UHGV virus genome: UHGV-0249804
Source of the DNA: a virus
Strand: one strand, 5' to 3'
DNA length: 14,897 bases
This document shows, piece after piece, positions 1 through 14,897 of this stretch. The notes beneath the pieces were generated by a model, which did not search any database, was not told the DNA's origin, and worked only from the letters and a program-made list of their open reading frames with translations. Each line of letters starts with the position of its first letter. The first letter of the stretch is position 1. The position numbers were made by a program, and so were the translations under genes.

Positions 1-23
1 TAGCCATTTGATTCACAAGGCCA

Positions 24-52
24 TTGACGCATCGCCCGGTTAGTTTTAACCT
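24..52 (+). promoter_or_regulatory. putative sigma70 promoter of the tRNA-Thr gene
   Basis: TTGACG hexamer at 24-29 with an A/T-rich hexamer 16-17 bp downstream, about 40 nt before the tRNA 5' end. Position and consensus only. Confidence 0.3.
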
Positions 53-92
53 TGTCCACCGTGATTCACGTTCGTGAACATGTCCTTTCAGG

Positions 93-168
93 GCCGATAT
101 AGCTCAGTTGGTAGAGCAGCGCATTCGTAATGCGAAGGTCGTAGGTTCGACTCCTATTATCGGCACCA
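93..168 (+). tRNA. thrW: tRNA-Thr, anticodon CGU
   Basis: 76-nt sequence GCCGATATAGCTCAGTTGGTAGAGCAGCGCATTCGTAATGCGAAGGTCGTAGGTTCGACTCCTATTATCGGCACCA folds as a cloverleaf with a GTTCGA T-loop and CGT in the anticodon loop. I recognise it as the enterobacterial thrW-type tRNA, a known attachment site for P22-like phages. Confidence 0.93.
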
Positions 169-182
169 TTTAAATCAATAAG

Positions 183-1346
183 TTACACATCACTAGTACC
201 TTCCTTATTTTTTGACTGGGACAAATTTGGGACCGATGGGTTCAGGATCGAGTCTATTTGCCGTGCATGTTCGGTAAGGTGATTAGGTGCGAGGTGAGCA
301 TATCGACGAACCATTTCGATAGACTCCCAGCCTCCCATTTCCTGTAACACTGACAACGGGACTCCGGCTTGAACCAGCCAACTTGCCCAGGTGTGTCTCA
401 AGTCGTGAAATCTGAAATCATCAATACCTGCTCGTCTCAGCGCCGCTTTCCAGGCTGTGTTTGCGTCATACCGCATCTTCCTGACCGTTGGCGCTTTCGT
501 TCCGTCTGGTTTGGTACAGCTTTCCTTGTACACAAATACCCAACGGTGATGATTCCCGATTTGTTTTTTCAATACGCGACATGCAGTATCATTCAGCGCA
601 ACGCCAATTGCGCGGTTTGATTTACTCTCTTCCGGGTTTATCCATGCCACCCGGCGCTGCATATCTATTTGTTGCCATTCAAGGTTGATGATGTTCGAGC
701 GTCTTAAGCCTGTTGCCAGTGCAAATTCAACAACAGACTTTAATGGCTCCGGACATTCATCAATCAGCCTTTGTGCTTCATGGGGCTCCAGCCAGCGGAT
801 CCGTTTATTCTTTGGTTGAGGCACTTTAATAATTGGTGCCTTATCCAGCATTTTCCATTCACGCTCTGCGGCTCTTAGTAGGGCCTTTATAAATGAAAGA
901 TGCGTAGCCTTCGTTGCAACGGACGCTGGTTTTGGCGTGTATTCTGGAACAGGTTTCCCTTTTTTTCTGCATGCTTCTGCCCTGAGTTTCCAGTTTTCCT
1001 CATGACGCCGGTTCGTCATTTTCTGCATTGCTGAATAAATTTTTGATTCAGTAATGTCTCTTAGTTGCATTCCTGCGAAATGTTGAAGCCAGAATCCGAT
1101 CCGGCTTTTGTCATCGTCCAGTGATTTTTTATGTGCTTTCTCTTCAAGCCACCTGACACACGCTTCCTCGAACGTTATATCAGGTATTTCACCAAGTTTG
1201 CTGACCCGCCATGCTTCAGCCTTTAGCTTGTCATGGAGTTCTGTCGCCTGCCTTTTGTCCTTTGTTCCAAGAGACTGTTTAAATCTTTTACCGTTCGGCA
1301 ATGTGAAACTGGCGTACCATATTTCACCTCTGCGGAAGAGTGACAT
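183..1346 (-). CDS. int: tyrosine site-specific integrase, P22 Int-like
   Basis: 387-aa ORF, recognised from memory as near-identical in its N-terminus to P22 Int ([47 protein letters not shown]...). C-terminal [16 protein letters not shown]...RYAHL carries the catalytic R-H-R-Y signature. Ends 15 nt from the tRNA. Confidence 0.95.
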
Positions 1347-1573
1347 TTTCTTTCCTCTGTTATGCCATCACCCGCGCTCACCTGGACAGTATGCAGCGGA
1401 GACTGAAGAGCCGCAATGCAGGCTTGTCGTGTTGTGAGGTAAGGAGATTTATTCTTAGTGGGATCTTTGCGTGTTGCCTGAAGACGCCCTGTGCGTATCC
1501 AGTTAATGGCAGTCGGTCTGGATATCTTGAGAAAATGACAGGCCTCATCGAGTGTGAGGCTGTATGGCTCCAT
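1223..1573 (-). CDS. xis: excisionase, P22 Xis-like
   Basis: Internal Met of the 144-aa ORF gives a 116-aa protein [66 protein letters not shown]... resembling P22 Xis. Overlaps the int 5' end in another frame, and its ATG overlaps the upstream gene's stop (TAATG). Confidence 0.8.
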
Positions 1574-1878
1574 TATTTCACCTCTTGCTGTGACATTGTT
1601 GAAAAATGGATACCAGCTCGTTGCTGCCAGACGATCCAACCGAGAGTCATATCCCATGCCATGTATTCGTTATCGCCGTTTTTTGCTCTCCGACGATCTA
1701 CTAAGTCACCGAAACGCTTTTCCATGAATAATTCATAAGCTTCGCGTTCATCTGGTTCTACTTCCAGCGATAGGAGTGCGATTTCATAAGCACGGCGCTC
1801 AATATCGTCTCGCACGTCAAGGCTGCTGATACGCTCTTTAATTTCTTTAATCAGTTCTTTGTCGGTAAAAGTGATCAT
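1573..1878 (-). CDS. hypothetical phage early protein (101 aa, acidic)
   Basis: Clean ORF in the int/xis operon; stop and start overlap neighbours by 1 nt, implying translational coupling. No recognisable motif. Confidence 0.6.
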   Translation of the reverse strand: MITFTDKELIKEIKERISSLDVRDDIERRAYEIALLSLEVEPDEREAYELFMEKRFGDLVDRRRAKNGDNEYMAWDMTLGWIVWQQRAGIHFSTMSQQEVK

Positions 1879-2240
1879 TATGCTCCAGCCTCCGGTGCTT
1901 TTGGCATTATTGCCCAGTGAGTGATATTGACGTTTTCAAGGTCCCCGACCTGAAATGTCCACTGCCATTCTCCGGTTTCTTTTTGTCCCCAGGTGTACCA
2001 GAGAGAACGCCAGCCAATTAGCCAGCCTTCTCCGTTAGCATCGAATAACAAAACACTTTCATTTGCTGGTGGCAGTTCAGCTGACACTGGTATTACTTTG
2101 TTTTCCTGTGCTGCACATTTAGCTTCAAGCGCATCGAATTTACGCACCAGGTATTCAGCATCTGTTTCATTTACTTTCAGATCTCGCGGTACACATCTCC
2201 CACGAAGAAACCCTTCCATTTCGAAAACATTCATGCGCAT
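1878..2240 (-). CDS. hypothetical phage early protein (120 aa, Trp-rich C-terminus)
   Basis: ORF in the same minus-strand operon, coupled to flanking genes; function not recognisable from sequence. Confidence 0.6.
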   Translation of the reverse strand: MRMNVFEMEGFLRGRCVPRDLKVNETDAEYLVRKFDALEAKCAAQENKVIPVSAELPPANESVLLFDANGEGWLIGWRSLWYTWGQKETGEWQWTFQVGDLENVNITHWAIMPKAPEAGA

Positions 2241-2767
2241 TTGCGTAACTCCGATAACTCGTTAAAACGTTCCATAAACATCCCGTAGGCATGGCCCGGT
2301 GCCTGTGGAATCACTTTGAACATCTCTGTTGCCGGGATACCTTCCAGTACAGGCCAGAAAGAGCCATCATCAAGCCCGAGATCGCGGCGTTCGGTTGCCA
2401 GCATAATGAGATCGGCATATTTCACTGGCGTGCTCATAACAGGAGGTAACCCGTATTTCTCACGTATTACGGCGTCTATTTTTTCTTCCATCCGTTTATA
2501 GTCAGGAAGAAGTCGTTTCAGTGGTGCGGGGATGTCCTGGCAATATGCTTCTGTTGCATCATGCATTAAAGCTTCAAAAGCAAATTCCTGTGGCACCAGC
2601 TGGCTGCAAAGCACCGCATGTTGGGCGACACTGTAGAAGTGTGAAAGATGTCCTGCAAAGCGACAGATATTTGAAAGGGAAACCGCGATATCGTTAATAA
2701 CGATGTCGTCTTTATTTATCCTGTCATAATAAAAATGCTTCCCGGAAAAAGTTTTAATAAATGACAT
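2231..2767 (-). CDS. HD-domain metal-dependent phosphohydrolase-like protein
   Basis: H...HD signature (AGHLSHF...AQHAVL...ALMHDATEAY). Preferred start is the ATG at 2767 (MSFIKTF), preceded by GGAG with 6-nt spacing; the ORF-track start at 2794 is a GTG without an RBS. Confidence 0.65.
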   Translation of the reverse strand: MSFIKTFSGKHFYYDRINKDDIVINDIAVSLSNICRFAGHLSHFYSVAQHAVLCSQLVPQEFAFEALMHDATEAYCQDIPAPLKRLLPDYKRMEEKIDAVIREKYGLPPVMSTPVKYADLIMLATERRDLGLDDGSFWPVLEGIPATEMFKVIPQAPGHAYGMFMERFNELSELRKCA

Positions 2768-2991
2768 TTTGTTCTCCACGTATATGCGCTGCACCGCGCT
2801 GAATTCGGGTAAAAGGAAGCCCTCACCGTCCGGCGATTATTGAGTCAATTACATTTCCATAAATGCCCCCGTAGGGGCGGTTAGTTTCTCCACAAAACAG
2901 AGAAGAACACCTGCGGTGGCAGCCGCCCGGATGGATTGGGTTACCTCATGGCAAAAAGTCCCGGATTCAGTGTGATGATGACGAAGGCATT

Positions 2992-3186
2992 ATGATAGAC
3001 AGTTGTGTGGCTCGGTTGAGAAAGTATAAACCAGAGGAATATGAGCTAATCATAGCTCACTTTGTCATTGGTATCTCATTACGCACTATTGCCAAGAAGA
3101 GAAGATGTTCAGATGGCACAGTTAGGAAAAAATTGCAGACTGCCTTGGGGTTTGTTGAAGGATGTATTTGTTTGATTGAGTTCTAA
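2992..3186 (+). pseudogene. C-terminal remnant of a Q-like late antiterminator (sigma region-4-like HTH)
   Basis: 64-aa ORF with an HTH-like segment (ISLRTIAKKRRCSDGTVRKKLQTALGFV), sitting at the early/late junction just upstream of the lysis region. Only about 200 bp lie between it and the upstream gene, too little for a full Q. Family assignment is from memory of Q-protein C-termini. Confidence 0.45.
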
Positions 3187-3188
3187 AA

Positions 3189-3212
3189 AGAATGAGGCGT
3201 AAGCCTCATTCT
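3189..3212. terminator. bidirectional rho-independent terminator between convergent genes
   Basis: Perfect 10-bp stem AGAATGAGGC / GCCTCATTCT with GTAA loop, A-run on the left and T-rich tract on the right. Overlaps the stop codon of the minus-strand membrane-protein gene. Confidence 0.7.
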
Positions 3213-3775
3213 TTATCTTTAATTATAAGTTTCGATTTTTCATCATGCATTTTGTCTATCATAAAATACATACCTAATGCCGTTGTGTATATAATGTTGC
3301 ATATGGTACTTAAATAAATAAACAAAAGTAATGATTTCACTAGTGGATATGATGAAAGGTGTAATTCCTTGATGCTTGCGCTGGTTAGTTGAAGTGCTCC
3401 TCCAACGAAATACAGCGCGATGCTCATAAACGCTAAATAACCAAATAGATAAGTGAGGAATTTACGCCTTGTAAGTTTTTTACCTTTTAATACCGGAGGT
3501 ATGCCATGCATAACTTCATCCATACCATCCTTACTGAAGGTTGCAACTGCAGCCATAGATGCAATGTAAAAACCAGATAGTATTTGAAGTATCCCGTTTA
3601 CTAAAGACACAAGACTATCCTTCCCGAGAAGTGAGATGGTTTTCGGTAAGTAATAGATGGATAAAGTAATAATTGCAGCAGTGAAAATGGGTAAAACCCA
3701 GTCAAAAAATCGCTTCTCAGGATGCTTTATGCGTAGGTAGTCTATAGGTGTAAAAACCTTAGATAAAACATACAT
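3206..3775 (-). CDS. small polytopic membrane protein (190 aa, four predicted TM helices), second gene of the AT-rich cargo operon
   Basis: ATG at 3775 preceded by AAGGAGG with 6-nt spacing; the ORF-track start at 3868 would overlap the upstream gene. Four hydrophobic segments of about 21-29 residues (about residues 22-43, 55-80, 106-128, 145-173) and a charged C-terminal tail. Sampled 60-mers are about 32% GC. Confidence 0.75.
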   Translation of the reverse strand: MYVLSKVFTPIDYLRIKHPEKRFFDWVLPIFTAAIITLSIYYLPKTISLLGKDSLVSLVNGILQILSGFYIASMAAVATFSKDGMDEVMHGIPPVLKGKKLTRRKFLTYLFGYLAFMSIALYFVGGALQLTSASIKELHLSSYPLVKSLLLFIYLSTICNIIYTTALGMYFMIDKMHDEKSKLIIKDKE

Positions 3776-3807
3776 ATATGCCTCCTTTTGACAGGTTTTC
3801 CATGCCT

Positions 3808-4743
3808 TCACTTTAACATAAAGTTTTGCATTTTTGCGAGAAGTTCTTCGTGAAATGCTGTTTGGCAAACGGCAATTGTTGATGCCAACACTGCTTTTTC
3901 ACGTTGTGCCAATTGTGCTGTTGCGAGTTCCTGTAGGCTCATTTCTTTTCCGATGGAAACAAGATCTGATGAAACGCGTTTATTTTTGTCTTTATAAGAA
4001 ATTCTTAACATTGTATACTTTCTACCACGAAGTTTGTCATATGCAGACTTAATCGCCTTAATTGCACCCTCTCCGCGACGTATTTTTGTTGATAGCTTTA
4101 GTGTTTCTTCTTCAACCATTACTGTGCCATCATCATCTAAAGAGTTATCTTTAAAGCGACGAGTAGCAGTAAGTCCACATAAATAACCAGTGGATAGAGA
4201 TTGCTCAAGTGTTGTTGCAGCCAAAAAATCAATGTCGAAAATAGGTCTGCACTTAAGTTCTTTTTTCCCTCCTGAACGGATAAAGGAAAAATTATTTTCT
4301 CGCAGGAAATAAGTTAAAGCTTGGGCTAATAAACCTCTGGTAATGCCCGGAACTTCTTCTAAAATTGCCTCATAACAATCTTGGAATGATGAGTCGCTCG
4401 GTCTTTTTTTGATAAGCACATGAGCAGAGTACCCCATACCTTCATCATTTTGCTTTTTCTCAATTCTGGTTTCACCAGTTTTTATGTTGGAAAAGGCGGG
4501 ATCAGAAGCATCTTTATTTATATATTGAAAAAGCAATTTCAGGTAATTTTCATCGTCTTTTATGGATAGCAATCTTATGACAGAACGTCCTTTGTTTAAT
4601 TCGTAAACAGCTTCTCCTTTGTTATAGCGATTTTTTAAAACAGGAATACAGTTTACTAAAGGCATGTCAGGTGCGTCATTAGGATACTTCTTTAAAGTAA
4701 CCTGGCATTTGATCATGAAACGTTCATTATCTCCCAAGAGCAT
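3808..4743 (-). CDS. hypothetical 311-aa soluble protein, first gene of the AT-rich cargo operon; possible nucleotidyltransferase-like motif
   Basis: Long ORF with an AAGGAA RBS 6 nt before the ATG, in AT-rich DNA (sampled 60-mers about 25-37% GC). No family recognised; residues 158-172 (GGKKELKCRPIFDID) fit a minimal hGG-x10-DhD pattern. Confidence 0.8.
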   Translation of the reverse strand: MLLGDNERFMIKCQVTLKKYPNDAPDMPLVNCIPVLKNRYNKGEAVYELNKGRSVIRLLSIKDDENYLKLLFQYINKDASDPAFSNIKTGETRIEKKQNDEGMGYSAHVLIKKRPSDSSFQDCYEAILEEVPGITRGLLAQALTYFLRENNFSFIRSGGKKELKCRPIFDIDFLAATTLEQSLSTGYLCGLTATRRFKDNSLDDDGTVMVEEETLKLSTKIRRGEGAIKAIKSAYDKLRGRKYTMLRISYKDKNKRVSSDLVSIGKEMSLQELATAQLAQREKAVLASTIAVCQTAFHEELLAKMQNFMLK

Positions 4744-4822
4744 ATCTGTTCCTTATACGAGCACTAATACTGATTGCTGTTTTTAGTTCAGCAGAACCAA
4801 AGGTTAACTGATTGTGCTTGAT

Positions 4823-4852
4823 AGTATATATTTTTCACTAACGCGTACGCAA
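4823..4852 (-). promoter_or_regulatory. putative promoter of the AT-rich two-gene operon
   Basis: On the minus strand, TATACT (-10) with TTGCGT about 18 bp upstream, roughly 80 nt before the ATG at 4743. Hexamer match only. Confidence 0.3.
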
Positions 4853-4898
4853 AAAGTATTGTATCGTGTTAAGAGTGGTTACTTCGCCACACAACTTA

Positions 4899-4922
4899 AA
4901 CCCGCCGCTGAGCGGTTTTTTT
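4899..4922 (+). terminator. candidate rho-independent terminator (short GC hairpin plus T7 run)
   Basis: CCGC-TGA-GCGG hairpin followed by TTTTTTT, in the intergenic region upstream of the small ORF and methyltransferase. Confidence 0.4.
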
Positions 4923-5044
4923 GTACCTGTAAACTTGGTGCAGTACAGTAAACACGCTGGTGGTCGTGAATACTGACTTTTTATCTTGCTGGCTTTTTAG
5001 ACAAGAGTTATTGGTATGTCATGTTAACCAGAAGGAAAAAAGAC

Positions 5045-5239
5045 ATGCTAAAACAGCTAGATATGACAGAAACGGCGAAAGTTGTTTTTAATGAATTAAG
5101 CGTCGAACCGGCAACAGTCGGGGAGATAGCACAAAACACATACCTTTCACGCGAACGCTGTCAGTTAATACTGACCCAGCTGGTTATGGCGGGGCTGGCA
5201 GATTACCAGTTCGGCTGTTACAGACGCCTTCAGCAATGA
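5045..5239 (+). CDS. small protein (64-72 aa), possible winged-helix DNA-binding regulator
   Basis: ORF 5021-5239. The ATG at 5045 has an AAGGA RBS 9 nt upstream; the 5021 ATG has none. The C-terminal part (TVGEIAQNTYLSRERCQLILTQLVMAGLADYQF) resembles small PapI/FaeA-type winged-helix proteins by pattern only. Confidence 0.45.
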   Translation: MLKQLDMTETAKVVFNELSVEPATVGEIAQNTYLSRERCQLILTQLVMAGLADYQFGCYRRLQQ

Positions 5240-5388
5240 AGGGCTTTTAATTTGTGAAAATGGGCGGCTGGTGGGTGTTGGTAGCACCTGCCAGCCATTC
5301 GCTCATGCTTACTGGTCACAAGCGAACCACGGCCCACTGCTTTAGCGCAAAAGCAAAGTGAGCCTACCAGAGTTACGCTTACTGATCC

Positions 5389-6441
5389 ATGAAAAATACT
5401 GTAAAAATAAACAGTGTTGATTTAATCAACGCTGATTGCCTGCATTTTATTCAGTCCCTGCCTGATGATTCCATTGACCTGATAGTTACCGATCCGCCGT
5501 ACTTCAAAGTGAAGCCCAACGGCTGGGACAATCAGTGGGAAGGGGACGAAGATTACCTGAAGTGGCTGGACCACTGTCTGGCCCAGTTCTGGCGGGTACT
5601 GAAACCATCCGGAAGCCTTTACCTGTTCTGTGGACATCGCCTGGCATCTGATATCGAGATCATGATGCGTGAACGTTTCAACGTGCTTAACCATATCATC
5701 TGGGCGAAGCCGTCTGGACGTTGGAATGGGTGTAATAAAGAAAGTCTGCGCGCATATTTTCCCGCCACAGAGCGTGTTCTGTTTGCTGAACATTACCAGG
5801 GGCCATATCGCGGCAAAAGTGACGGCTATGCGGCAAAAGAAAGGGAACTCAAACAGCACATAATGGCACCGCTGATTTCGTATTTCAGGGATGCTCGTGC
5901 CGAACTGGGTATAACGGCAAAACAGATTGCCGAAGCCACAGGTAAGAAAAATATGGTTTCCCACTGGTTTGGTAGCAGTCAGTGGCAGTTGCCGAACGAG
6001 GCTGACTACCGGAAGTTGCAGGCACTGTTTTCTCGTATAGCGGCAGAGAAGTTTCAGGAACAACAACTGGAACAACCACACCACCAGCTGGTGGCATCTT
6101 ATGATTCACTGAATCGCAAATATTCTGAATTGCTGGATGAGTTTAAATCTCTCCGGCGCTATTTCTCCGTATCAGTCTCCGTGCCTTATACCGATGTCTG
6201 GATGCATAAACCCGTTCAGTTCTACCCGGGTAAACATCCGTGTGAGAAACCGGCGGATATGCTCAGGCAAATAATCAATGCCAGTAGTCGACCAGGCGAT
6301 CTGGTTGCTGATTTCTTTATGGGATCCGGTTCCACAATAAAAGCAGCAATGGCGCTGGGGCGTCGGGCGTTAGGTGTTGAGCTTGAGTCAGAGCGGTTTA
6401 ACCAGACGGTGAAAGAGGTAAGTGAACTGGTGGGGAAATAG
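5389..6441 (+). CDS. DNA N6-adenine/N4-cytosine methyltransferase, beta class (DPPY ... FxGxG order)
   Basis: 350-aa ORF with motif IV DLIVTDPPY near the N-terminus and the AdoMet-binding motif I DFFMGSGST near the C-terminus, typical of N6_N4 amino-methyltransferases. A roughly 100-aa insert (about residues 150-260) is rich in helix-forming residues. GC is about 50%, unlike the AT-rich operon. Confidence 0.9.
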   Translation: MKNTVKINSVDLINADCLHFIQSLPDDSIDLIVTDPPYFKVKPNGWDNQWEGDEDYLKWLDHCLAQFWRVLKPSGSLYLFCGHRLASDIEIMMRERFNVLNHIIWAKPSGRWNGCNKESLRAYFPATERVLFAEHYQGPYRGKSDGYAAKERELKQHIMAPLISYFRDARAELGITAKQIAEATGKKNMVSHWFGSSQWQLPNEADYRKLQALFSRIAAEKFQEQQLEQPHHQLVASYDSLNRKYSELLDEFKSLRRYFSVSVSVPYTDVWMHKPVQFYPGKHPCEKPADMLRQIINASSRPGDLVADFFMGSGSTIKAAMALGRRALGVELESERFNQTVKEVSELVGK

Positions 6442-6446
6442 TTCTG

Positions 6447-6470
6447 GTGGCCACGTTGCGTGGCCTTTTT
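6447..6470 (+). terminator. rho-independent terminator downstream of the methyltransferase gene
   Basis: GGCCACG-TTG-CGTGGCC hairpin followed by TTTTTATTT, starting 8 nt after the methyltransferase stop. Confidence 0.6.
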
Positions 6471-6518
6471 ATTTCCAACACAGCACCCGCAAATAATCGC
6501 GAGGTGAGAGATGACGAA

Positions 6519-6854
6519 ATGCCTCATAACCCAAATACCTGGCCAGACTGGCTGGAGTTGTTTCAGAGCTGGTGGCGTGGAGATACGCCACTGGGCGCAG
6601 TGATTATGTCGATCGTTATGGCTGGCTTGCGCATTGCCTATTTTGGCAGTGGTGGTGGCTGGAAACGAAAAACGCTCGAGATTTTGCTCTGTGGCGCTCT
6701 GACACTGACCTTTGCATCCGCTCTTGAGTATGTCGGATGGCCTAAATCACTTTCTGTTGCCATTGGTGGTGGGGTGGGGCTGATCGGGGTCGATGCTATT
6801 CGTGGGGCTGCAATGAGGGTAATCGGTAACAAGTTTGGTAGCTCGAAGGAGTAA
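6519..6854 (+). CDS. putative holin (class I-like, three hydrophobic segments)
   Basis: Immediately upstream of the endolysin gene. ATG at 6519 is preceded by GAGGTGAGAG; the ORF-track start at 6447 lies inside the terminator hairpin and is rejected. Three hydrophobic stretches and a charged C-terminus. Confidence 0.75.
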   Translation: MPHNPNTWPDWLELFQSWWRGDTPLGAVIMSIVMAGLRIAYFGSGGGWKRKTLEILLCGALTLTFASALEYVGWPKSLSVAIGGGVGLIGVDAIRGAAMRVIGNKFGSSKE

Positions 6855-6857
6855 TTT

Positions 6858-7334
6858 ATGCAGGTACTAAATCCCCAGCGTAAAGCTTTCCTTGATATGG
6901 TGGCCTGGTCAGAAGGAACGGATAACGGGCGACAACCGACACGTAACCACGGTTATGACGTTATTGTCGGTGGAGAACTCTTCACTGATTACTCCGATCA
7001 CCCTCGCAAACTTGTCACGCTAAACCCGAAACTCAAATCAACAGCTGCAGGCCGTTATCAACTTCTTTCACGCTGGTGGGATGCTTACCGTAAACAGCTT
7101 GGCCTGAAAGATTTTTCTCCAGAAAGCCAGGACGCTGTAGCTCTGCAGCAGATTAAAGAGCGTGGTGCTTTACCGATGATTGACCGCGGCAATATTCGTC
7201 AGGCAATCGACCGTTGCAGCAATATCTGGGCTTCACTGCCGGGCGCTGGTTATGGTCAGTATGAACATAAAATTGGTGACCTGATTGCAAGGTTTAAAGA
7301 GGTTGGCGGGGTGGTAAATGAAGTTGAGCTATAA
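6858..7334 (+). CDS. R: endolysin, lambda R-type lytic transglycosylase
   Basis: 158 aa, recognised from memory as near-identical to lambda R over most of its length (...NQRKAFLDM.AWSEGTDNGRQ.TRNHGYDVIVGGELFTDYSDHPRKLVTLNPKLKST.AGRYQLLSRWWDAYRKQLGLKDFSP...). Confidence 0.93.
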   Translation: MQVLNPQRKAFLDMVAWSEGTDNGRQPTRNHGYDVIVGGELFTDYSDHPRKLVTLNPKLKSTAAGRYQLLSRWWDAYRKQLGLKDFSPESQDAVALQQIKERGALPMIDRGNIRQAIDRCSNIWASLPGAGYGQYEHKIGDLIARFKEVGGVVNEVEL

Positions 7335-7710
7335 GCTGGTTATTTCTGCTTTCCTCCTGACTTTATTCGGTTCTCTCGTCTGGTCAGCTAACCACTACCA
7401 CAGCAAATACCAGCGCGAAAAGAAACGCGCTGATGAGGCTGTACAAAATGCCGAATCAGCAACTGCCATTACCAATAACGTCCTGCAATCAATGCAAATC
7501 ATCAATACAGTTCTGGAGGCTAACCAGCATGCAAAACAGCAGATCGCACTGGAGTCACAGAGAACCCAGGAAGATATCAAAGTGGCTGTTGCGAATGATG
7601 ATTGCGCTTCACGTCCTGTGCCTGCTGCCGCTGCTGACCGGTTGCGGAAGTACGCGGACAGTTTACGTACAAGTTCCGGTGATACCGCTACCGGCAAGTC
7701 TGACCGCTGA
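7318..7710 (+). CDS. Rz: i-spanin Rz (inner-membrane spanin subunit)
   Basis: Follows R with overlap. N-terminal TM segment (LVISAFLLTLFGSLVWSANHY, compare lambda Rz ...CLSWAVNHY) then a coiled-coil-like periplasmic region. 130 aa is at the short end for Rz. Confidence 0.75.
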   Translation: MKLSYKLVISAFLLTLFGSLVWSANHYHSKYQREKKRADEAVQNAESATAITNNVLQSMQIINTVLEANQHAKQQIALESQRTQEDIKVAVANDDCASRPVPAAAADRLRKYADSLRTSSGDTATGKSDR

Positions 7711-7870
7711 AACCCCGCAACCAGCCATTCCCGATCCGCTGACCTATGGAGGCAGTCTGGATTTGAATGTGAGTCTGTTGTCAGCACTGACTAACTGTAA
7801 TCGGGATAAAACTTCTATTCGTAAAATAGAAGCAGAGAGTGTCAGTAAACGGATAAACCTTAATAAGTAG
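7595..7870 (+). CDS. Rz1: o-spanin Rz1 (outer-membrane lipoprotein), +1 frame, overlapping and extending beyond Rz
   Basis: In the +1 frame relative to Rz: MMIALHVLCLLPLLTGC with lipobox LTGC, followed by a Pro-rich mature region. An alternative start at 7529 has a GGAGG RBS 9 nt upstream but would give a 39-aa leader. The ORF ends 160 nt after the Rz stop. Confidence 0.6.
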   Translation: MMIALHVLCLLPLLTGCGSTRTVYVQVPVIPLPASLTAETPQPAIPDPLTYGGSLDLNVSLLSALTNCNRDKTSIRKIEAESVSKRINLNK

Positions 7871-8040
7871 TGCCATAGCAGCAGCCATGATATCCCAGAG
7901 AGCTCAAGGTTGCGCGTACCAGTCGCTCATTAATAGTGTAATTACACATTGTTTACGGTTGAGGGGAGCAGGGATATGCTCTAAGAAAATATCCACGTTA
8001 CTGGAGCGATCATTGAGGGAGTGTGGTATGTAGTATTTTC

Positions 8041-8070
8041 AGGCGCCTAGAAGGCGCCTATTTATTATTC
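8041..8070. terminator. hairpin terminator after the lysis cassette
   Basis: AGGCGCCT-AGA-AGGCGCCT (each 8-mer is self-complementary, giving an 8-bp stem) followed by ATTTATTATT. Overlaps the stop codon of the minus-strand 83-aa gene. Confidence 0.55.
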
Positions 8071-8316
8071 GTGACCAAAAGATAATAACTTTTCTTTGAA
8101 TTGCTGTAGGCGTTCAATTTCTTCTGGTGTATTTTCAGGAGAAATATCATTAGGGGCTATCGCCTCAACGACTTCTTGAAAAATAGTATTAACATCCATC
8201 CCAGAAGTGTTTGAAATATATTTCATGATGATTTTAATCATTACGCGATTTGCAGAGGTCTCAAGCTTTAATTCATCAATTTCTTTTTCTAATTCGGTAA
8301 TTATTTCTTGATTCAT
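8065..8316 (-). CDS. small acidic hypothetical protein (83 aa) in an AT-rich island
   Basis: Real gene is the C-terminal 83 codons of the 249-aa ORF (start MNQEIITELEKEIDELK at 8316); the rest of that ORF is antisense to the GC-rich plus-strand gene. No signal peptide or TM segment, so not a Bor-like lipoprotein. Confidence 0.6.
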   Translation of the reverse strand: MNQEIITELEKEIDELKLETSANRVMIKIIMKYISNTSGMDVNTIFQEVVEAIAPNDISPENTPEEIERLQQFKEKLLSFGHE

Positions 8317-8355
8317 GTAATTGCCCTTTTCAAAATCGTACAAGAGATAGAAATT

Positions 8356-8961
8356 ATGCCACCACGAACTCCTAAAGCCTGCCGGGTCCGAGGGTGCGGC
8401 AAAACGGACAGTAAAACCACCGCCACGGCGACGCAGCAGCGTAACGTGGTTGCCAGCACCCTTCGTACGACCGCAATCAGCGAAGCGGCGTATGCCGTCA
8501 TCCGATTGCCTGCGCCAACAACTTCCGCGGTGATGCAGAATGCCACAGTGGGGCAGGCAACAACACCTGCGCAGAGCACCGGTTGGCCTTCCGTCACGCA
8601 TCCGGCACTGAACAATGCACCGGCGGTGAAAAACACGGTTGACCTGCCGACGTGGGAAGAACTGACTGACATTCGCGACACACTGAATACGGCAATTGAT
8701 AAGGAGTTGTCCCGTACAACCAGTGATGCGCTGTTTCTGGCGCTGCGCCGGGTGAAAGCAGATCTGAATGCGGATATCAACACGCGCCTTGAGCAGTCTG
8801 CACGGATCATTCATCGCACACCGGATGAGGTTTTACCCGCGCTGGTGCTGGCGGCGACCTGGTTTGATAACGCGGCGCGTGACGCGGACATTATCCGGCG
8901 TAATGCCATTACGCATCCCGGCTTTGTGCCGGTGATCCCTCTGAAGGTGCCAGTGCAATGA
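8356..8961 (+). CDS. tail/baseplate-associated protein, probably a 5'-truncated remnant of the gene preceding Mu P (N-like)
   Basis: GC-rich ORF directly upstream of, and coupled (ATGA overlap) to, the gpP/D-like gene. Its reading frame runs back into the AT-rich island without an upstream module, and the first ATG in GC-rich DNA is 8356. Homology to Mu N is by position only. Confidence 0.45.
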   Translation: MPPRTPKACRVRGCGKTDSKTTATATQQRNVVASTLRTTAISEAAYAVIRLPAPTTSAVMQNATVGQATTPAQSTGWPSVTHPALNNAPAVKNTVDLPTWEELTDIRDTLNTAIDKELSRTTSDALFLALRRVKADLNADINTRLEQSARIIHRTPDEVLPALVLAATWFDNAARDADIIRRNAITHPGFVPVIPLKVPVQ

Positions 8962-10037
8962 ACGATAACGTCACGCTACGGGTAAATGGCCGGGAGTGGA
9001 ATGGCTGGACATCGGTGCGCATCGGTGCCGGTATTGAACGGCTGGCGCGGGATTTCAGCGTGGAGATCACCCGCCAGTGGCCGGGAGATGAGGGTATCAC
9101 CACGCTTCAGCCGCGCATTAAAAATGGTTCAAAAGTGGAAGTGCTGATTGGTGATGAGCTGGTGATCACCGGCTGGGTGGAGGCGACCCCCGTTCGTTAC
9201 GATGCCCGTTCGGTCAGCACCGGTATTGCCGGACGTAGTCTGACTGCTGACCTGATTGACTGTGCAGCCGAACCGACACAGTTTAACGGACGATCGCTGG
9301 TACAGATTGCGCAGGCGCTTGCTGCGCCTTTCGGCATTGAGGTGGTGAACAGCGATGCGCCGTCGGGTGTTATTCCTGATGTCCAGCCTGATCACGGTGA
9401 AACGGTGATCGAGGTGATCAACAAAATACTCGGTCAGCAGCAGGCGCTGGCTTATGACGACCCGCACGGCAGGCTGGTGATTGGCGGTATTGGCTCAACG
9501 CGGGCACATACCGCGCTGGTACTTGGGGAAAACATCCTTTCCTGTGATACGGAGAAGAGTATCCGGGAGCGGTTTTCAGTTTACCAGGTGGCGGGGCAGC
9601 GTGCCGGAAACGACGATGATTTCGGTGAGGCCACCACCACCGCGCTGCGGGCCCGCACAGAGGACGCATTTATTGCCCGTTACCGTCCGATGTATATCAG
9701 GCAGACAGGGCAGGCCACGGGGGCAGGCTGTATTGCGCGTGCTGACTTTGAAGCCCGACAACGGGCGGCGCGGACGGATGAAACCACCTATGTGGTGCAG
9801 GGCTGGCGACAGGGTAACGGTACGCTGTGGCAGCCCAACCAGCGGGTGATTGTCTTCGATCCGGTCTGTGGTTTCGACAATACCGAACTGCTTGTCTCGG
9901 AAGTCACGTTTACTCAGGACCAGAACGGCACCCTGACGGAAATCCGTGTCGGCCCACCTGATGCTTATCTGCCTGAACCAGAAGCCCCCGGCGCGCGGAA
10001 AAAGAAAAAAGCCAGAGTACAGGAGGACCCGTTCTGA
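8958..10037 (+). CDS. tail protein, Mu P / P2 gpD-like
   Basis: 359-aa ORF in conserved position upstream of the baseplate V-like gene, coupled to both neighbours. Family assignment rests on gene order and size in Mu-like baseplate modules. Confidence 0.7.
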   Translation: MNDNVTLRVNGREWNGWTSVRIGAGIERLARDFSVEITRQWPGDEGITTLQPRIKNGSKVEVLIGDELVITGWVEATPVRYDARSVSTGIAGRSLTADLIDCAAEPTQFNGRSLVQIAQALAAPFGIEVVNSDAPSGVIPDVQPDHGETVIEVINKILGQQQALAYDDPHGRLVIGGIGSTRAHTALVLGENILSCDTEKSIRERFSVYQVAGQRAGNDDDFGEATTTALRARTEDAFIARYRPMYIRQTGQATGAGCIARADFEARQRAARTDETTYVVQGWRQGNGTLWQPNQRVIVFDPVCGFDNTELLVSEVTFTQDQNGTLTEIRVGPPDAYLPEPEAPGARKKKKARVQEDPF

Positions 10038-10585
10038 TGAGGACGATTGAAGCCATGCAGCGACAACTCCTCGGCCTGATTGGGCGGGCCGTGGTGAAAA
10101 GCATCAGTGCCGCCACGAAATGTCAGACCGTGGATGTGTCCCTGATTGCCGGTGAACCCAAAGCCGGGGTTGAACATCTTGAACCCTACGGTTTTACCGC
10201 AAGGGCAAACAGCGGTGCGGAAGCGGTGGTGTTGTTTCCGGATGGCGACCGTTCTCATGCGGTGGTTGTTACGGTGTCGGACCGGCGCTACCGCCTGAAA
10301 GGGCTGCAGACGGGTGAGGTGGCTGTCTATGACGATCAGGGGCAGTCCGTGACGCTGACCCGGGAGGGGATCGTAGTGGACGGTGCAGGTAAAACGATCA
10401 CGTTTCGCAATGCACCTGAAGCACGTTTTGAAATGGACCTTGAAGTGACCGGACAGGTGAAAGACCTGTGCGACTCCGGCGGCACCACCATGTCAGCGAT
10501 GCGGCTTGCCTATAACGGGCATTGTCACAGAGAGAACGGTCAGGGCAGTAACACCGACAAACCTGATAAAGCGATGGAGGCATGA
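10037..10585 (+). CDS. baseplate assembly protein V-like (Mu gp45-type spike)
   Basis: 182 aa; C-terminal NGHCHRENG resembles the His-containing apex motif of gpV-type spikes. Start overlaps the upstream stop (TGATG). Confidence 0.8.
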   Translation: MRTIEAMQRQLLGLIGRAVVKSISAATKCQTVDVSLIAGEPKAGVEHLEPYGFTARANSGAEAVVLFPDGDRSHAVVVTVSDRRYRLKGLQTGEVAVYDDQGQSVTLTREGIVVDGAGKTITFRNAPEARFEMDLEVTGQVKDLCDSGGTTMSAMRLAYNGHCHRENGQGSNTDKPDKAMEA

Positions 10586-11010
10586 TGGAACTGTGGCTGA
10601 CGGTGAACGGTAAACGCACCTGCGCCAGCGCACCGCTGGATCCGCTGACCCGCGCCGTGGTGATTTCCCTGTTTACCTGGCGGCGGGCGGAGCCTGATGA
10701 CAACGCCGACGTCCCGATGGGATGGTGGGGGGATACCTGGCCTGCGGTACAGAATGACCGTTACGGCTCCCGACTGTGGCTGCTTCAGCGCAGCAAACTG
10801 ACCAATCAGCTGGTGCAGACGGTAAGGGGGTATATCCGTGAATGCCTGCAATGGATGATTGATGACGGCGTGGTGTCCCGTATTGATCTGGATATCCGCC
10901 GCACCGGGATTAATGAACTGGGTAACAGTATCACCCTCTGGCGTCGTGACGGACCGGTAATGATTTCTTTTGATGATCTGTGGAGTGCGATAACGCATGG
11001 CGGACAGTGA
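10582..11010 (+). CDS. baseplate protein, Mu gp46 family (gp25-like wedge)
   Basis: 142 aa, Trp-rich (GWWGDTWPAV), in the conserved position between the V-like and J-like genes; start overlaps the upstream stop. Confidence 0.8.
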   Translation: MMELWLTVNGKRTCASAPLDPLTRAVVISLFTWRRAEPDDNADVPMGWWGDTWPAVQNDRYGSRLWLLQRSKLTNQLVQTVRGYIRECLQWMIDDGVVSRIDLDIRRTGINELGNSITLWRRDGPVMISFDDLWSAITHGGQ

Positions 11011-12055
11011 ATTTCAGCGCCCGACGCTGGCAGAAAATATCAGTATGCTCCGTAACGATTTATTCGCCAGGCTGGACGTCAGCGACACGCTCCGGCGCAT
11101 GGATGAAGACGTGCGGGCAAAGGTGTATGCGGCGGCGCTGCATACGGTTTACGGGTACATCGATTATCTGGCAATGAATATGCTGCCTGACCTGTGCGAT
11201 GAGTCCTGGCTGGCGCGACATGCTGCGATGAAACGGTGTCCGCGCAAGGGGGCCACGGCTGCCAGCGGGTATATGCGCTGGGAAGGTGTCAGCGATGGCC
11301 TGAAGGTGACTGCCGGGAGTGTTATTCAGCGCGATGACCTGGTTCAGTACACGGCAACTGCCGATGCAACCAGCTCCGGTGGTGTCCTGCGCGTGCCGAT
11401 CGCCTGCTCAAGTGCAGGCGCGGTCGGTAACGCTGACGACGGTACGTCATTAATCCTGGTCACGCCGGTGAATGGTCTGCCGTCTTCCGGCGTGGCAGAT
11501 ACCCTGACAGGTGGATTTGATACTGAAGAGCTGGAAACGTGGCGCGCCCGCGTCATTGAGCGGTATTACTGGACACCTCAGGGCGGGGCTGACGGGGACT
11601 ATGTCGTCTGGGCTAAAGAAGTGCCCGGCATTACCCGCGCATGGACATACCGTCACTGGATGGGAACGGGAACTGTCGGTGTGATGATTGCCAGCAGTGA
11701 CCTGATTAATCCCATTCCGGAAGAATCAACGGAAACGGCAGCAAGACAACATATCGGGCCACTGGCCCCGGTGGCAGGCTCTGATTTGTATGTATTCAGG
11801 CCGGTGGCACATACGGTGGATTTTCATATCCGCGTGACGCCGGACACACCAGAAATACGGGCTGCCATTACCGCGGAGTTGCGTTCGTTCCTGCTGCGTG
11901 ATGGTTATCCGCAGGGAGAGCTGAAGGTGTCGCGTATCAGTGAAGCGATTTCCGGTGCGAACGGGGAATACAGCCATCAGTTGCTTGCACCGGCAGACAA
12001 TATCTCCATTGCGAAAAACGAACTGGCGGTTCTGGGGACGATTTCATGGACGTGA
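10997..12055 (+). CDS. baseplate J-like protein (Mu gp47 family)
   Basis: 352 aa, in the conserved position before the DUF2313-like and tail-fibre genes; overlaps both neighbours by a few codons. Confidence 0.85.
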
Positions 12056-12630
12056 CAAACGATGATTACATCCGTCTGTTGTCAGCACTGTTGCCGCCCG
12101 GTCCGGCGTGGTCAGCCAGCGATCCGGCGATTGCCGGTGCAGCACCATCATTAACCCGTGTTCATCAGCGTGCGGATGCCCTGATGCGGGAGCTGGATCC
12201 GCGCACCACCACCGAACTGATAAACCGCTGGGAGCGTCTGTGCGGTCTGCCGGATGAATGTATTCCGGCGGGAACGCAGACCCTTCGCCAGCGTCAGCAA
12301 CGGCTGGATGCGAAGGTTAACCTGGCGGGCGGCATCAACGAGGATTTTTATCTTGCACAGCTTGCTGCCCTGGGCAGACCAGATGCCACCATCACGCGAT
12401 ACGACAAAAGCACCTTCACCTGCTCATCGGCCTGTACTGACGTGGTGAATGCGCCGGAATGGCGGTATTACTGGCAGGTCAACATGCCAGCTGCCACCAA
12501 CACCACCTGGATGACATGTGGTGATCCCTGTGATTCCGCACTGCGTATCTGGGGCGACACCGTTGTCGAGTGCGTGCTTAACAAACTCTGCCCGTCGCAT
12601 ACCTACGTAATTTTTAAATATCCGGAGTAA
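12046..12630 (+). CDS. tail protein, Mu gp48 / YmfQ (DUF2313)-like
   Basis: 194 aa, Cys-rich C-terminus, immediately upstream of the tail-fibre gene as in e14 and Mu-like elements. Confidence 0.8.
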
Positions 12631-12633
12631 TCC

Positions 12634-13284
12634 ATGCATCGTATAGACACGAAAACCGCGCAGAAGGATAAGTTCGGCGCGGGTAAGAACGGTTTTACCC
12701 GTGGTAACCCCCAGACCGGCACGCCTGCCACCGATCTGGATGATGACTACTTTGACATGTTGCAGGAGGAACTTTGCAGCGTGGTGGAGGCATCCGATGC
12801 CAGCCTGGAGAAGGGGCGGCACGACCAGTTACTTACCGCACTTCGCGCGCTGCTGTTAAGCCGCAAGAATCCGTTTGGCGATATCAAATCGGATGGCACT
12901 GTGCAAACGGCTCTCGAAAACCTTGGTTTGGGAGAAGCAGCTAAAAGGAATGTAGGTACAGGGGCGAATCAGATACCTGATATGAGCCTGTTCGCGTCAA
13001 TTAATACCGTAACGGCTGCTGCGCAAAAATTTCCGTCTGGATTAATTTTACAGTGCGGTCAGTTGAATGGTGCCCCGAATGTATCTTCAACATACGGGAT
13101 GACGTTCCCGATGACGTTCTCAAGAGTCCTTGCTGTCACAGTTACATTGAACGTTACTGGCGCGTCAGGGCAGCCGACTGTATCGGCGACAAATGTCCAT
13201 AACACTGGATTTGATATTACAGTGTCGCCCGGTTCAGGATATGGTTCATCTGCTGATGCGTATTACATTGCAATGGGATATTAA
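12634..13284 (+). CDS. side tail fibre protein (constant N-terminal part joined to the currently expressed variable C-terminal cassette)
   Basis: 216 aa. The N-terminal conserved segment ends with ...[15 protein letters not shown], whose coding sequence is the crossover site; the C-terminal part is lower-GC variable sequence. Confidence 0.85.
12819..12937. repeat. left inverted repeat of the invertible tail-fibre segment (at least 119 bp; partner at the right window edge)
   Basis: The reverse complement of the last ~119 bp of the window is identical to 12819-12937 by direct comparison. Identity stops at 12938 and may extend further left; the window edge truncates the partner. Confidence 0.85.
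12911..12936. other. Gin/Hin/Pin-family crossover site (left)
   Basis: 26 bp CTCTCGAAAACC-TT-GGTTTGGGAGAA with imperfect dyad symmetry, matching the TTCTC.AAAACC half-site pattern of hix/gix/cix sites. It lies exactly at the inner edge of the inverted repeat. Confidence 0.7.
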
Positions 13285-13288
13285 CGAA

Positions 13289-13708
13289 ATGTCATATTTT
13301 TATTCTGCATCGACAAACGGATTTTATTCGACTGAATTTCACGGCACCAATATTCCTGATGATGCAGTGGAAATCTCGGAATCAGAGTGGAAAACACTGA
13401 TTAACTCACAGAGTGTAACAAAAATGATTACCTGTGGTGAGAACGGTCACCCTGTCATTGTTGACCGTCCTTCTCCAACACCAGAACAATTAGCCTTAAT
13501 AAATGATGAAAAGAAATCTGCACTGATAGCAGAGGCAACGAATGTAATAGCTCCGCTTCAGGATGCGGTTGATTTAGGTATGGCAACAAATGATGAAACG
13601 AAACTGTTACTAGCATGGAAAAAATATCGAGTGCTATTGATGCGTATTAATACTTCAACAGCACTCGATATTGAATGGCCTACGCCTCCGGCAGTTCAGG
13701 CCAGATGA
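13289..13708 (+). CDS. tail fibre assembly protein (U/Tfa-like), current orientation
   Basis: ATG at 13289 ([17 protein letters not shown]...) 4 nt after the fibre stop; the ORF-track 5' extension overlaps the fibre gene and is rejected. Typical Tfa N-terminus. Confidence 0.8.
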
Positions 13709-14282
13709 CATCCGGCGCTGTGCTGGTATCTGTTGCCATCACCGCGTCAATGTAATCCAGCACAGCGTTAAGGCGGGTTGTTTCTGCCTGCGTCAGCTTC
13801 CGCCCGGCCTGTAATTTCAGTTGAATCAGACTAATGGAAGCCATTGCAGCATCAATCAGTGACTGACGCTGTGCTTCTGCCGCTTCGACTGCTGCGCTAT
13901 GCTGTGCCTCAGTATCTGTTACCCATTTCTCACCATCCCATTTATCGTATGGCGTTAACGGGGCGATAGTGGTCGTGTTTTCAGGATAATCACCCGGAGC
14001 TGTGATTTCTTTTGATTCTCCTGTTTCGGTGCTATAGACGATTTCACCGCGATGGTCTGGCACATATTCCCATGAGTTAAAATCTGCAGAACGGCAAATT
14101 GCATAACCAGCTTTATATGAGCCAGGAGCATCTAAACAGGAACATGCCGGGATACCGACGCCAACCGCAAGATATTCAGTTGATGTGGAAATATATTCCC
14201 GCGTTTCACCATCATAATTATAAATGGTAATGTCTCCCGCTTTTATGGCAATGAGTTCGTTATTTAATACGGCTTTATTCAT
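13680..14282 (-). CDS. alternative tail fibre assembly protein (U'/Tfa-like), inverted cassette
   Basis: 200-aa minus-strand ORF directly downstream of, and coupled to, the S'v cassette (start overlaps its stop by 1 nt). Converges on the plus-strand tfa gene. Confidence 0.8.
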
Positions 14283-14897
14283 CAGGCAGCCCTCACGATA
14301 TAATTAAAGGCAATGTTACGAGGACGGTTTTCGTTTGCAGTTGGAACAATTCTTGAAGCATCAAGGCCAATCACTTTTGGGTAAACAGAGCCATCTGTTC
14401 TTTCTATCACCATACTTCTGATTAAGGAGAAATAACTATTGTTCGTTGAGGGGTTCAAAGGCACCACTGCCCCCTTAAATGAGTCTACTGATTCCCATAT
14501 TGAATAATTTTCGGTGTTTACAGTCTTGAACTCACCATAGATATTACGTATGGCATCGCCCTGAGCGGATAATATTGCCCTCCCCGTATCCATACCACGT
14601 CCGTCATCCCAGCCACGAATAAACTCACCACGTAAATCAGGCAATTTATTTGTCGGGTAAGCCTTTGCCAGTTCCGGGTATTCTTCAGCAGAAAAAGCTG
14701 CTCCGTTGCATTTCAGCCAGCCTGTTGGCGGAGTGGCTGAAGGCCACGGAACAGGCACCCCAACAGGTAATGCAGAGCCTTCTCCCAAACCAAGGTTTTC
14801 GAGAGCCGTTTGCACAGTGCCATCCGATTTGATATCGCCAAACGGATTCTTGCGGCTTAACAGCAGCGCGCGAAGTGCGGTAAGTAACTGGTCGTGC
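14282..14897 (-). CDS. alternative tail-fibre variable C-terminal cassette (S'v) plus inverted copy of the constant-region 3' end; 5' end beyond window or absent
   Basis: The minus-strand frame encodes ...[12 protein letters not shown] followed by a different C-terminus, and stays open to the window edge through the inverted repeat. The 'M' in the ORF track is the GTG codon for that Val. Confidence 0.75.
14779..14897. repeat. right inverted repeat (truncated by window edge), containing the right crossover site at about 14779-14805
   Basis: Reverse complement identical to 12819-12937. Coordinates here may be off by 1. Confidence 0.8.

Follow-up and report, generated by a model that had tools for sequence, protein, structure and literature searches.

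A Pin-type invertible tail-fibre segment of an e14-family Escherichia coli prophage, with a right repeat arm most of which is probably a contig-end fold-back

The DNA analysed here (the window) is a stretch of 14,897 nt, the right-hand end of which carries a tail-fibre gene, two tail-fibre assembly chaperone genes, and a second fibre tip in the opposite orientation (Table 1). The genes upstream of the fibre have Pfam matches to Mu gp44, gp45 and gp46, baseplate J, and gp48 (YmfQ). An original prediction for this region described the fibre as a constant part with a variable C-terminus, followed by a Tfa chaperone gene, and both the open reading frames and Pfam agree with that description. The variable tip now in use (Sv) matches PF21882 (Gp53-like_C; E 4e-14, residues 132–216), while its match in the PDB is weak (short tail fibre gp92, E 0.0045). 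The chaperone gene behind it encodes a Caudo_TAP protein (PF02413, E 8e-31), for which the gene calls of RefSeq and of a near-identical contig (L037, see below) use upstream ATGs equivalent to 13241 or 13256.

A second cassette with its own chaperone gene had been predicted on the minus strand, and is indeed found there. Its tip (Sv'), in a reading frame (ORF 14282–14815) that is open as far as the window end, matches PF07484 (Collar, E 1e-15). The comparison of the two C-termini with known domains—one of the checks proposed at the outset—thus pairs a Gp53-like_C tip with a Collar tip, the latter resembling the tip of T4 gp37 (PDB 2XGF, E 1.5e-17) and a short tail fibre (9CUY, E 2e-26). The minus-strand chaperone is also a Caudo_TAP protein (E 8e-33), and an identical protein is present in 264 blocks of the searched collection. 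The 3' ends of the two chaperone genes overlap by the predicted 29 nt (13680–13708). Scans of 12400–14897 for promoter and terminator consensus sequences gave matches no more numerous than in shuffled sequence, and a tRNA was the sole Rfam match.

Table 1. Features of the invertible tail-fibre region, with positions in the 14,897 nt window.
Feature	Position	Strand	Remarks
Fibre ORF	12634–13284	+	216 aa
Constant 5' part (Sc) of the tail-fibre gene	12634–12924	+	Codons 1–97, up to the crossover core
Left crossover site	12911–12936		CTCTCGAAAACC TT GGTTTGGGAGAA; reverse complement of published pixL
Variable fibre tip (Sv), now fused to Sc	12925–13284	+	gp53-like C-terminal type
Tail-fibre assembly chaperone for Sv	13289–13708	+	139 aa from ATG at 13289
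TfaE-like chaperone for the alternative tip	13680–14282	-	200 aa
Alternative fibre tip (Sv')	14282–14791	-	Collar type; 'off' copy in the window orientation
Right crossover site, as written	14780–14805		TTCTCCCAAACC AA GGTTTTCGAGAG; pixL again
Reverse-complement copy of fibre codons about 63–93 (12819–12910)	14806–14897	-	Extends to the last base of the window

Both cassettes lie between the arms of an inverted repeat, which within the window is perfect over 119 nt (12819–12937 and 14779–14897, 100% complementary). The right arm reaches the last base of the window, so that 119 nt is the length visible there. Towards the inner end of each arm is a 26 bp crossover site. The two sites, in inverted orientation and with identical cores (AA/TT), both fit the pattern TTC---AAAC- -A -GTTT---GAA of the Din family (Hin/Gin/Cin/Pin), in line with the half-sites predicted for the inner 26 bp of the repeat. 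The core is TT at 12923–12924 in the left site, which codes for LENLGLGE within the fibre, and AA at 14792–14793 in the right site. One detail of the prediction was off: identity between the copies had been thought to end one base inside the site but, in the published register, runs one base past its inner edge.

The published sites are pixL, TTCTCCCAAACC AA GGTTTTCGAGAG, and pixR, TTCTCCCAAACC AA CGTTTATGAAAA (PMC3241671 Table 3). The left site of the window matches pixL at 26/26 positions and is the same as the site in K-12 e14. With pixL also at its right end, the segment as written has pixL at both ends and pixR at neither. In the right site, it is the inner half and the AA core (14780–14793) that are common to the relatives, and the outer half that is not; the alignment of loci, K-12 and the published site pair all give pixR CGTTTATGAAAA as the relatives' outer half. 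The 14-mer TTCTCCCAAACCAA occurs exactly twice in the window, at 12923–12936 (-) and 14780–14793 (+), against a chance expectation of 0.17 matches. Further Din-type or pix-like sites, which would point to Min-type multiple inversion, were sought throughout the window and none was found beyond these two; the region is a simple two-site switch. Its layout is that of e14, with the crossover inside the fibre coding sequence and two opposed tips, each with a chaperone gene, and Sc joins either tip in frame, in the window orientation and in the flipped state alike.

The closest known system is the P segment of K-12 e14 with its invertase PinE (stfP-tfaP-tfaE-stfE-pinE). Megablast against complete E. 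coli genomes returned loci annotated as ymfQ, tail fibre, tfa, tfaE, phage tail protein and pinE, and the gene order (ymfQ, fibre, tfa, tfa, fibre tip, pin) is shared with e14. The likeness to e14 extends to (i) the crossover sites, the left being identical over 26 bp and the right identical in its inner half and core, (ii) the jayE-ymfQ-stfP constant region, 97.6% identical at the nucleotide level (window 11268–12945), with a single residue of the first 101 aa of Sc differing from K-12 StfP, (iii) the tfaE-like gene, 90.5% identical in nucleotides, with the same 29 nt chaperone overlap, and (iv) a pin-proximal leader, MPFA(R/C)YF..INVGLGE, fused to the off cassette. The two elements differ in their plus-strand cassette, the gp53-like tip and its chaperone being unrelated to the StfP tip and TfaP save for the last 13 aa of the chaperone, and in the middle of the Collar-type tip. 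The segment measures about 1.87 kb here and 1.80 kb in K-12 e14; the attachment context is tRNA-Thr rather than icd; the gene after pin is a LEM-3-like GIY-YIG gene in near-identical contigs rather than mcrA; and the deletions that the two elements have suffered are different.

In K-12, PinE was shown by experiment to invert the P segment at TTGGTTTGGGAGAAGG / CCTTCTCCCAAACCAA, as was PinQ acting in trans; the inverted form accounts for about 30% of a wild-type culture (PMC12529663). The inner half and core of the sites described here equal the K-12 inversion junctions of both enzymes, TTGGTTTGGGAGAAG / CTTCTCCCAAACCAA (PMC12529663). Both P-segment states coexist in clonal MG1655 cultures (PMC4272514). 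Sequence comparison identifies the region as the e14 P region, the same and already known system, with matching sites and, in near-identical contigs, a recombinase that differs little from PinE; many sequenced E. coli genomes already contain the cassette pair in annotated form. The original call of a Gin/Pin-type switch of the Mu G, P1 C or e14 P kind is thus borne out by the identity of the left site with pixL and by the K-12 e14 gene order.

Other inversion systems share parts of this arrangement. In P2-like E. coli prophages (e.g., ML35), the whole invertible segment is found at 99.8% identity, bounded by the crossover sites and lying next to a 188-aa recombinase, and it is present in both orientations (L005 versus L006). 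These prophages differ in their constant part, which is of the P2 gpH type, 350–400 aa long and without similarity to the one here, and in their outer half-sites, TTCTCGCATACC and CGTTTAAGAAAA. The same segment also occurs in a third phage type (L012). The G segment of phage Mu, inverted by Gin, has the same plan of a constant Sc, opposed alternative Sv/U and Sv'/U' cassettes and an adjacent invertase, with 26 bp sites of TTC...AAACC half-sites, and the baseplate genes upstream of the fibre here are Mu gp44–48-like. The gix core is GA, compared with AA here; similarity to the Mu S fibre is marginal (E 0.088); and the G segment is about 3 kb long with 34 bp repeats. The C segment of P1 (Cin) and the Min region of p15B also switch fibre tips at Din-family sites. 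The P1 segment has 0.6 kb repeats with cix at their outer ends, and Min has six sites compared with two here, where the real repeat is the site itself.

The invertase gene had been predicted to lie just to the right of the window, with the suggestion to look there for a serine recombinase of ~190 aa. The gene is indeed outside the window, which stops 92 nt past the right site. Sister contigs were found through an element-specific 201-aa ORF (8356–8961), a fusion made by an internal deletion; looking it up gave eleven contigs of this defective element, all short and drawn from metagenomes and Logan. As members of one defective prophage, they are 99.7–99.9% identical to the window overall, with some spans reaching 100%. 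The first, L037 (ERZ27272609), follows window 38–14798 at 99.73% in the window's own orientation (A) and continues into pixR, a 54 nt spacer and a 184-aa Resolvase+HTH_7 gene. The second, L036 (ERZ27272610), follows window 23–12937 at 99.93% and then runs from 14897 back to 12918 at 99.95% (its own positions 15341–13362 correspond to window 12918–14897); it is in the flipped orientation (B), and past its flipped segment come pixR and the same recombinase. Orientation A is also seen in L039 (ERZ27259223; window up to 13718, 100%) and L040 (ERZ28664197; up to 12977, 99.99%), and orientation B in L038 (ERZ27272624; 5388–12937 at 99.95%, then 14897–14653 at 100%). The Logan contig L041 (SRR10333435; 6981–12937, 100%) breaks off precisely at 12937, beyond which the two states differ.

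Both orientations of the segment therefore occur in the same defective element, A in three sister contigs and B in two, and the window itself carries the left junctions of both states. The 266-aa Sc-Sv' fibre encoded in L036 has the same sequence as the flipped-state fibre predicted from the window. On the pin-proximal side of these contigs, the tip that is 'off', whichever of the two it may be, is preceded in frame by a fused leader, MMPFARYFCIFIN-VGLGE; in L036, the chimera of this leader and the gp53-like tip is 133 aa long (L036 14975–15376). The recombinase of L036 and L037 (184 aa, PF00239 and PF02796, starting MLIGYVRVSTNDQ) has its ATG 54 nt to the right of pixR and is identical to K-12 PinE at 177/184 residues (96%), with 524/555 nt identical to pinE. 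It answers to the serine recombinase that had been anticipated in both size and position. A Resolvase+HTH_7 gene adjoins the segment in complete genomes and in the sister contigs, and a small serine recombinase is present in every related locus examined that has both cassettes and sequence past the right site. Judging from the sister contigs, the recombinase gene, pixR and the enhancer should lie beyond the right end of the window. Among complete E. coli genomes, the A junction was found at a coverage of at least 80% in 14 genomes, and a synthetic B junction in 514. The strains LD27-1 and LD26-1, considered as an isogenic pair of opposite orientation, were rejected as such: their prophage contexts differ, and one of them lacks the second cassette and pin.

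The A and B sister contigs come from different samples, as they would if the switch were a fossil that no longer inverts in this lineage, its two orientations being contributed by different strains, each with a fixed state. The defective nature of the prophage would suit such an explanation, as would the loss of pin and one cassette in some relatives (e.g., L023; L004, with an IS3 insertion). We consider it unlikely, however. The sister contigs retain both pix sites and an intact pin gene, the product of which is close to the active PinE; they are no more than 0.3% apart and yet opposite in orientation; and in three of the six contigs, the sequence breaks off at the point where the two states part, or no more than about 130 nt from it. 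Moreover, the K-12 element flips in clonal cultures at the same sites, and responds in trans to PinQ as well.

The switch being of the Pin type, what remains to be accounted for is the length of the repeat. The original prediction had an inverted repeat of at least 119 bp bounding the cassettes. This is correct as a description of the window, where 119 nt are perfect, but is not supported as a biological boundary: six related loci repeat only the site. In L001–L003 the inverted repeat at the segment ends is just 20–27 nt long, and in K-12, L036 and L037 it consists of the 26 bp pixL/pixR sites alone. Five loci (L015, L016, L017, L021 and L037) are 99.5–99.98% identical to the window up to 14798 (L037 at 99.73% over its whole span), and the outer 92 nt of the right arm (14806–14897) are absent from that place in all five. 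After the AA core, the first four of them read CGTTTATGAAAA TGCAGAAATAACG...ATGCTTATTGGC, that is, pixR and then pin, whereas the window reads GGTTTTCGAGAG and then the reverse complement of the fibre's constant part. Divergence between the window and these near-identical loci begins exactly past the crossover core. As the change-over falls at the crossover core, the final stretch of the window (14806–14897) can be read, on sequence grounds, as probably the Sc-Sv' junction of the flipped state, attached as a contig-end fold-back; the same junction is contiguous in L036 and L003. Taken as a whole, the window runs from the left flank through the segment into the left flank reversed, an arrangement that in a single molecule would amount to a fold-back.

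Most likely, then, the outer 92 nt arose as a fold-back at a contig end, from DNA in which the orientations were mixed, and are not a biological repeat. Its simplest origin would lie in the assembly graph: with both orientations sequenced, the last k-mer before the branch (ending at 12937) would have two successors, and the contig would re-enter that k-mer in reverse and then stop. The repeat length of 119 is itself a common, standard k value for de Bruijn assembly. If this reading is right, the artefact is evidence for both orientations, or for two strains of opposite orientation, in the sample. For the source sample, the apparently chimeric contig end is the one observation that speaks for coexistence of the two orientations, and two strains fixed in opposite orientations would yield the same contig. 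A 41 nt exact pattern spanning the element-specific deletion junction (8383–8423) had no match in viral contigs, JGI metagenome contigs or GTDB genome contigs.

A repeat of at least 119 nt that is real in one molecule would require an inverted duplicate of a piece of the fibre's constant part beside Sv', and would turn the system into a switch between two pixL sites flanked by long homology, not unlike the P1 C segment with its 0.6 kb repeats. The repeat is, after all, perfect and part of the sequence as given, and since the window simply stops, nothing contradicts its continuation. Such a structure is nonetheless quite improbable. The five loci named above have pixR and pin in its place, no such structure occurs among the complete genomes examined, and divergence starting exactly past the crossover core is what a recombinant junction predicts. 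In addition, the arm stops at the window's last base, and the extra sequence has no obvious source and, lying beyond the crossover sites, would take no part in the inversion; in the P1 repeats, cix occupies the outer ends. General (RecA) homologous recombination between the arms, for which 119 nt of perfect repeat would suffice in length, is scarcely credible as the source of inversion and ranks low together with the genuine long repeat: in related genomes the repeat is only about 20–27 nt, the junctions of both orientations coincide with the Din-type core, and the K-12 segment is locked by deletion of pinE and pinQ (PMC12529663).

The reading that we favour, at a probability of roughly 0.88, combines the two parts argued above: a P-type invertible segment of an E. 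coli e14-family prophage, switched by Pin, and a right arm that is a contig-end fold-back. Under this reading, the Pin serine recombinase, encoded just past the window's right end, would bind as dimers to each of the two 26 bp pix sites and, assisted by a Fis-bound enhancer inside pin, would make staggered cuts at the 2 bp cores (12923–12924 and 14792–14793), rotate the strands and religate them. The segment of roughly 1.87 kb between the cores would flip. The fibre gene would retain its first 97–101 codons and its upstream late-operon transcription, while exchanging the receptor-binding tip and the chaperone gene that follows. The window orientation would give a 216-aa fibre with a gp53-like tip and a 139-aa chaperone, and the flipped orientation a 266-aa fibre with a Collar-type tip and a 200-aa TfaE-like chaperone. 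The real right flank would be pixR, then 54 nt, then pin; the outer 92 nt would be foreign to the element in that position: with both orientations in the sequenced DNA, the assembler would have appended the left junction that belongs to the flipped state. The cleavage chemistry, the dependence on the Fis enhancer and present activity in the source organism are expected by analogy with K-12 e14 and the Hin/Gin literature.

The prophage that carries this switch is heavily deleted. Relative to the complete prophage of GCA_007148845 (L033/L017), with which its shared parts are 100% and 99.98% identical, the element lacks about 13.7 kb, with the junction at about 8401–8405. The lost block holds the HNH, terminase, portal, protease, capsid, connector, sheath, tube and tape-measure genes and most of the DNA-circularisation gene. 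A second missing block, left of 2941, is the lambdoid early region. What survives is an integrase gene adjoining tRNA-Thr, together with a DNA methylase, the lysis and baseplate genes and the switch. The fibre thus does not belong to a virion-building phage. Because the head, sheath, tube and tape-measure genes are lost and no virion is possible, host-range switching is moot: the predicted host-range switch stands as an identification of the system, but here it cannot alter a virion's host range, and K-12 e14 is defective in the same sense.

By analogy with K-12, there is a slender chance that an intact switch in a deleted prophage is kept for the benefit of the host, as a recombinase-switched block of phage adsorption with a different tip. 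In the sister contigs, the leader MMPFARYFCIFIN-VGLGE joined to the off tip corresponds to the StfE/StfE2 chimera of K-12, for which a block of phage T2 adsorption has been reported. If this were true, the gp53-like, lectin-type tip could give a different phage specificity.

The biological import of the region itself is small, as an e14 P region with the same sites and a near-identical invertase is already described; the e14 P region was reported in 1985 and is still under study. A more general lesson concerns sequence assemblies: a perfect inverted repeat at a contig end, the inner edge of which is a recombinase site, should be taken to indicate mixed orientations in the sample rather than how long the biological repeat is. 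Finally, the presence of the segment at 99.8% identity in e14-like prophages, P2-like prophages and a third prophage type is an example of the modular way in which unrelated phages are known to swap fibre tips.

Large parts of the prophage in the window have been lost. Head and tail genes spanning about 13.7 kb are absent, with a junction at about 8401–8405, and the lambdoid early region is missing to the left of position 2941. At the junction, the two alignments overlap by 5 nt, which suggests microhomology. Since the parts shared with a complete prophage are 99.98–100% identical, both deletions appear to be recent. Records of the 201-aa fusion ORF (see table) are limited to 11 short contigs from metagenomes and Logan. 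Retained despite the deletions is a DNA methylase gene, lying immediately upstream of the holin gene and identical in many complete prophages of the same family.

The tyrosine integrase gene is the immediate neighbour of a tRNA-Thr(CGT) gene, and this e14-family element is therefore placed at a tRNA-Thr site; K-12 e14, in contrast, is located in icd. Bases 1–22 of the window do not match sister contig L036, which carries the same defective element with the invertible segment flipped.

Coordinates of the features discussed (window, sister contigs L036 and L037, and related prophages L004 and L023)
Feature	Location	Strand	Remarks
tRNA-Thr(CGT) gene	window 93–168	+	
Tyrosine integrase gene	window 183–1346	-	Phage_integrase, E 3e-48
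N6/N4 DNA methylase gene, 350 aa	window 5389–6441	+	PF01555, E 7e-43
201-aa fusion ORF	window 8356–8961		
18-bp hairpin, then six U	window 13617–13672	-	
Leader plus 'off' tip ORF, 183 aa	L037 14245–14796	-	
Leader plus 'off' tip ORF, 133 aa	L036 14975–15376	-	
Lost switch	L004 (strain CFSAN061762) about 6196–7359		tfaE cut short by an IS3-family element that takes the place of second tip and pin
Lost switch	L023 (strain LD27-1) about 6023–6257		gtr-type glycosyltransferase genes in place of second cassette and pin

Shortly 3' of the stop codon of the 200-aa chaperone gene, and within the plus-strand chaperone coding sequence, lies a hairpin of -32 kcal/mol (z -7.3; none of the shuffles was equally stable). 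It looks like an intrinsic terminator of the flipped-state operon; the consensus terminator scan overlooked it because its loop measures 14 nt.

In the sister contigs, the interval between the right crossover site (pixR) and the invertase gene pin contains an in-frame leader, MMPFARYFCIFIN, on the strand opposite pin. The leader is joined, via VGLGE, to whichever of the two tips is 'off'. The resulting ORFs are analogues of K-12 StfE and the StfE2 chimera, the latter of which has been reported to block T2 adsorption.

The switch is gone from some related prophages: in L004 and L023, the gp53-like state is locked. Elsewhere, the entire invertible segment (window 12912–14798) is found at 98.6–99.8% identity in L001, L005, L006 and L012, which comprise P2-like prophages, where both orientations are seen, and a prophage of a third, myovirus type. 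At both ends, identity stops at the crossover sites, and the flanking regions are unrelated. The invertible segment appears to be a module that moves between phages.
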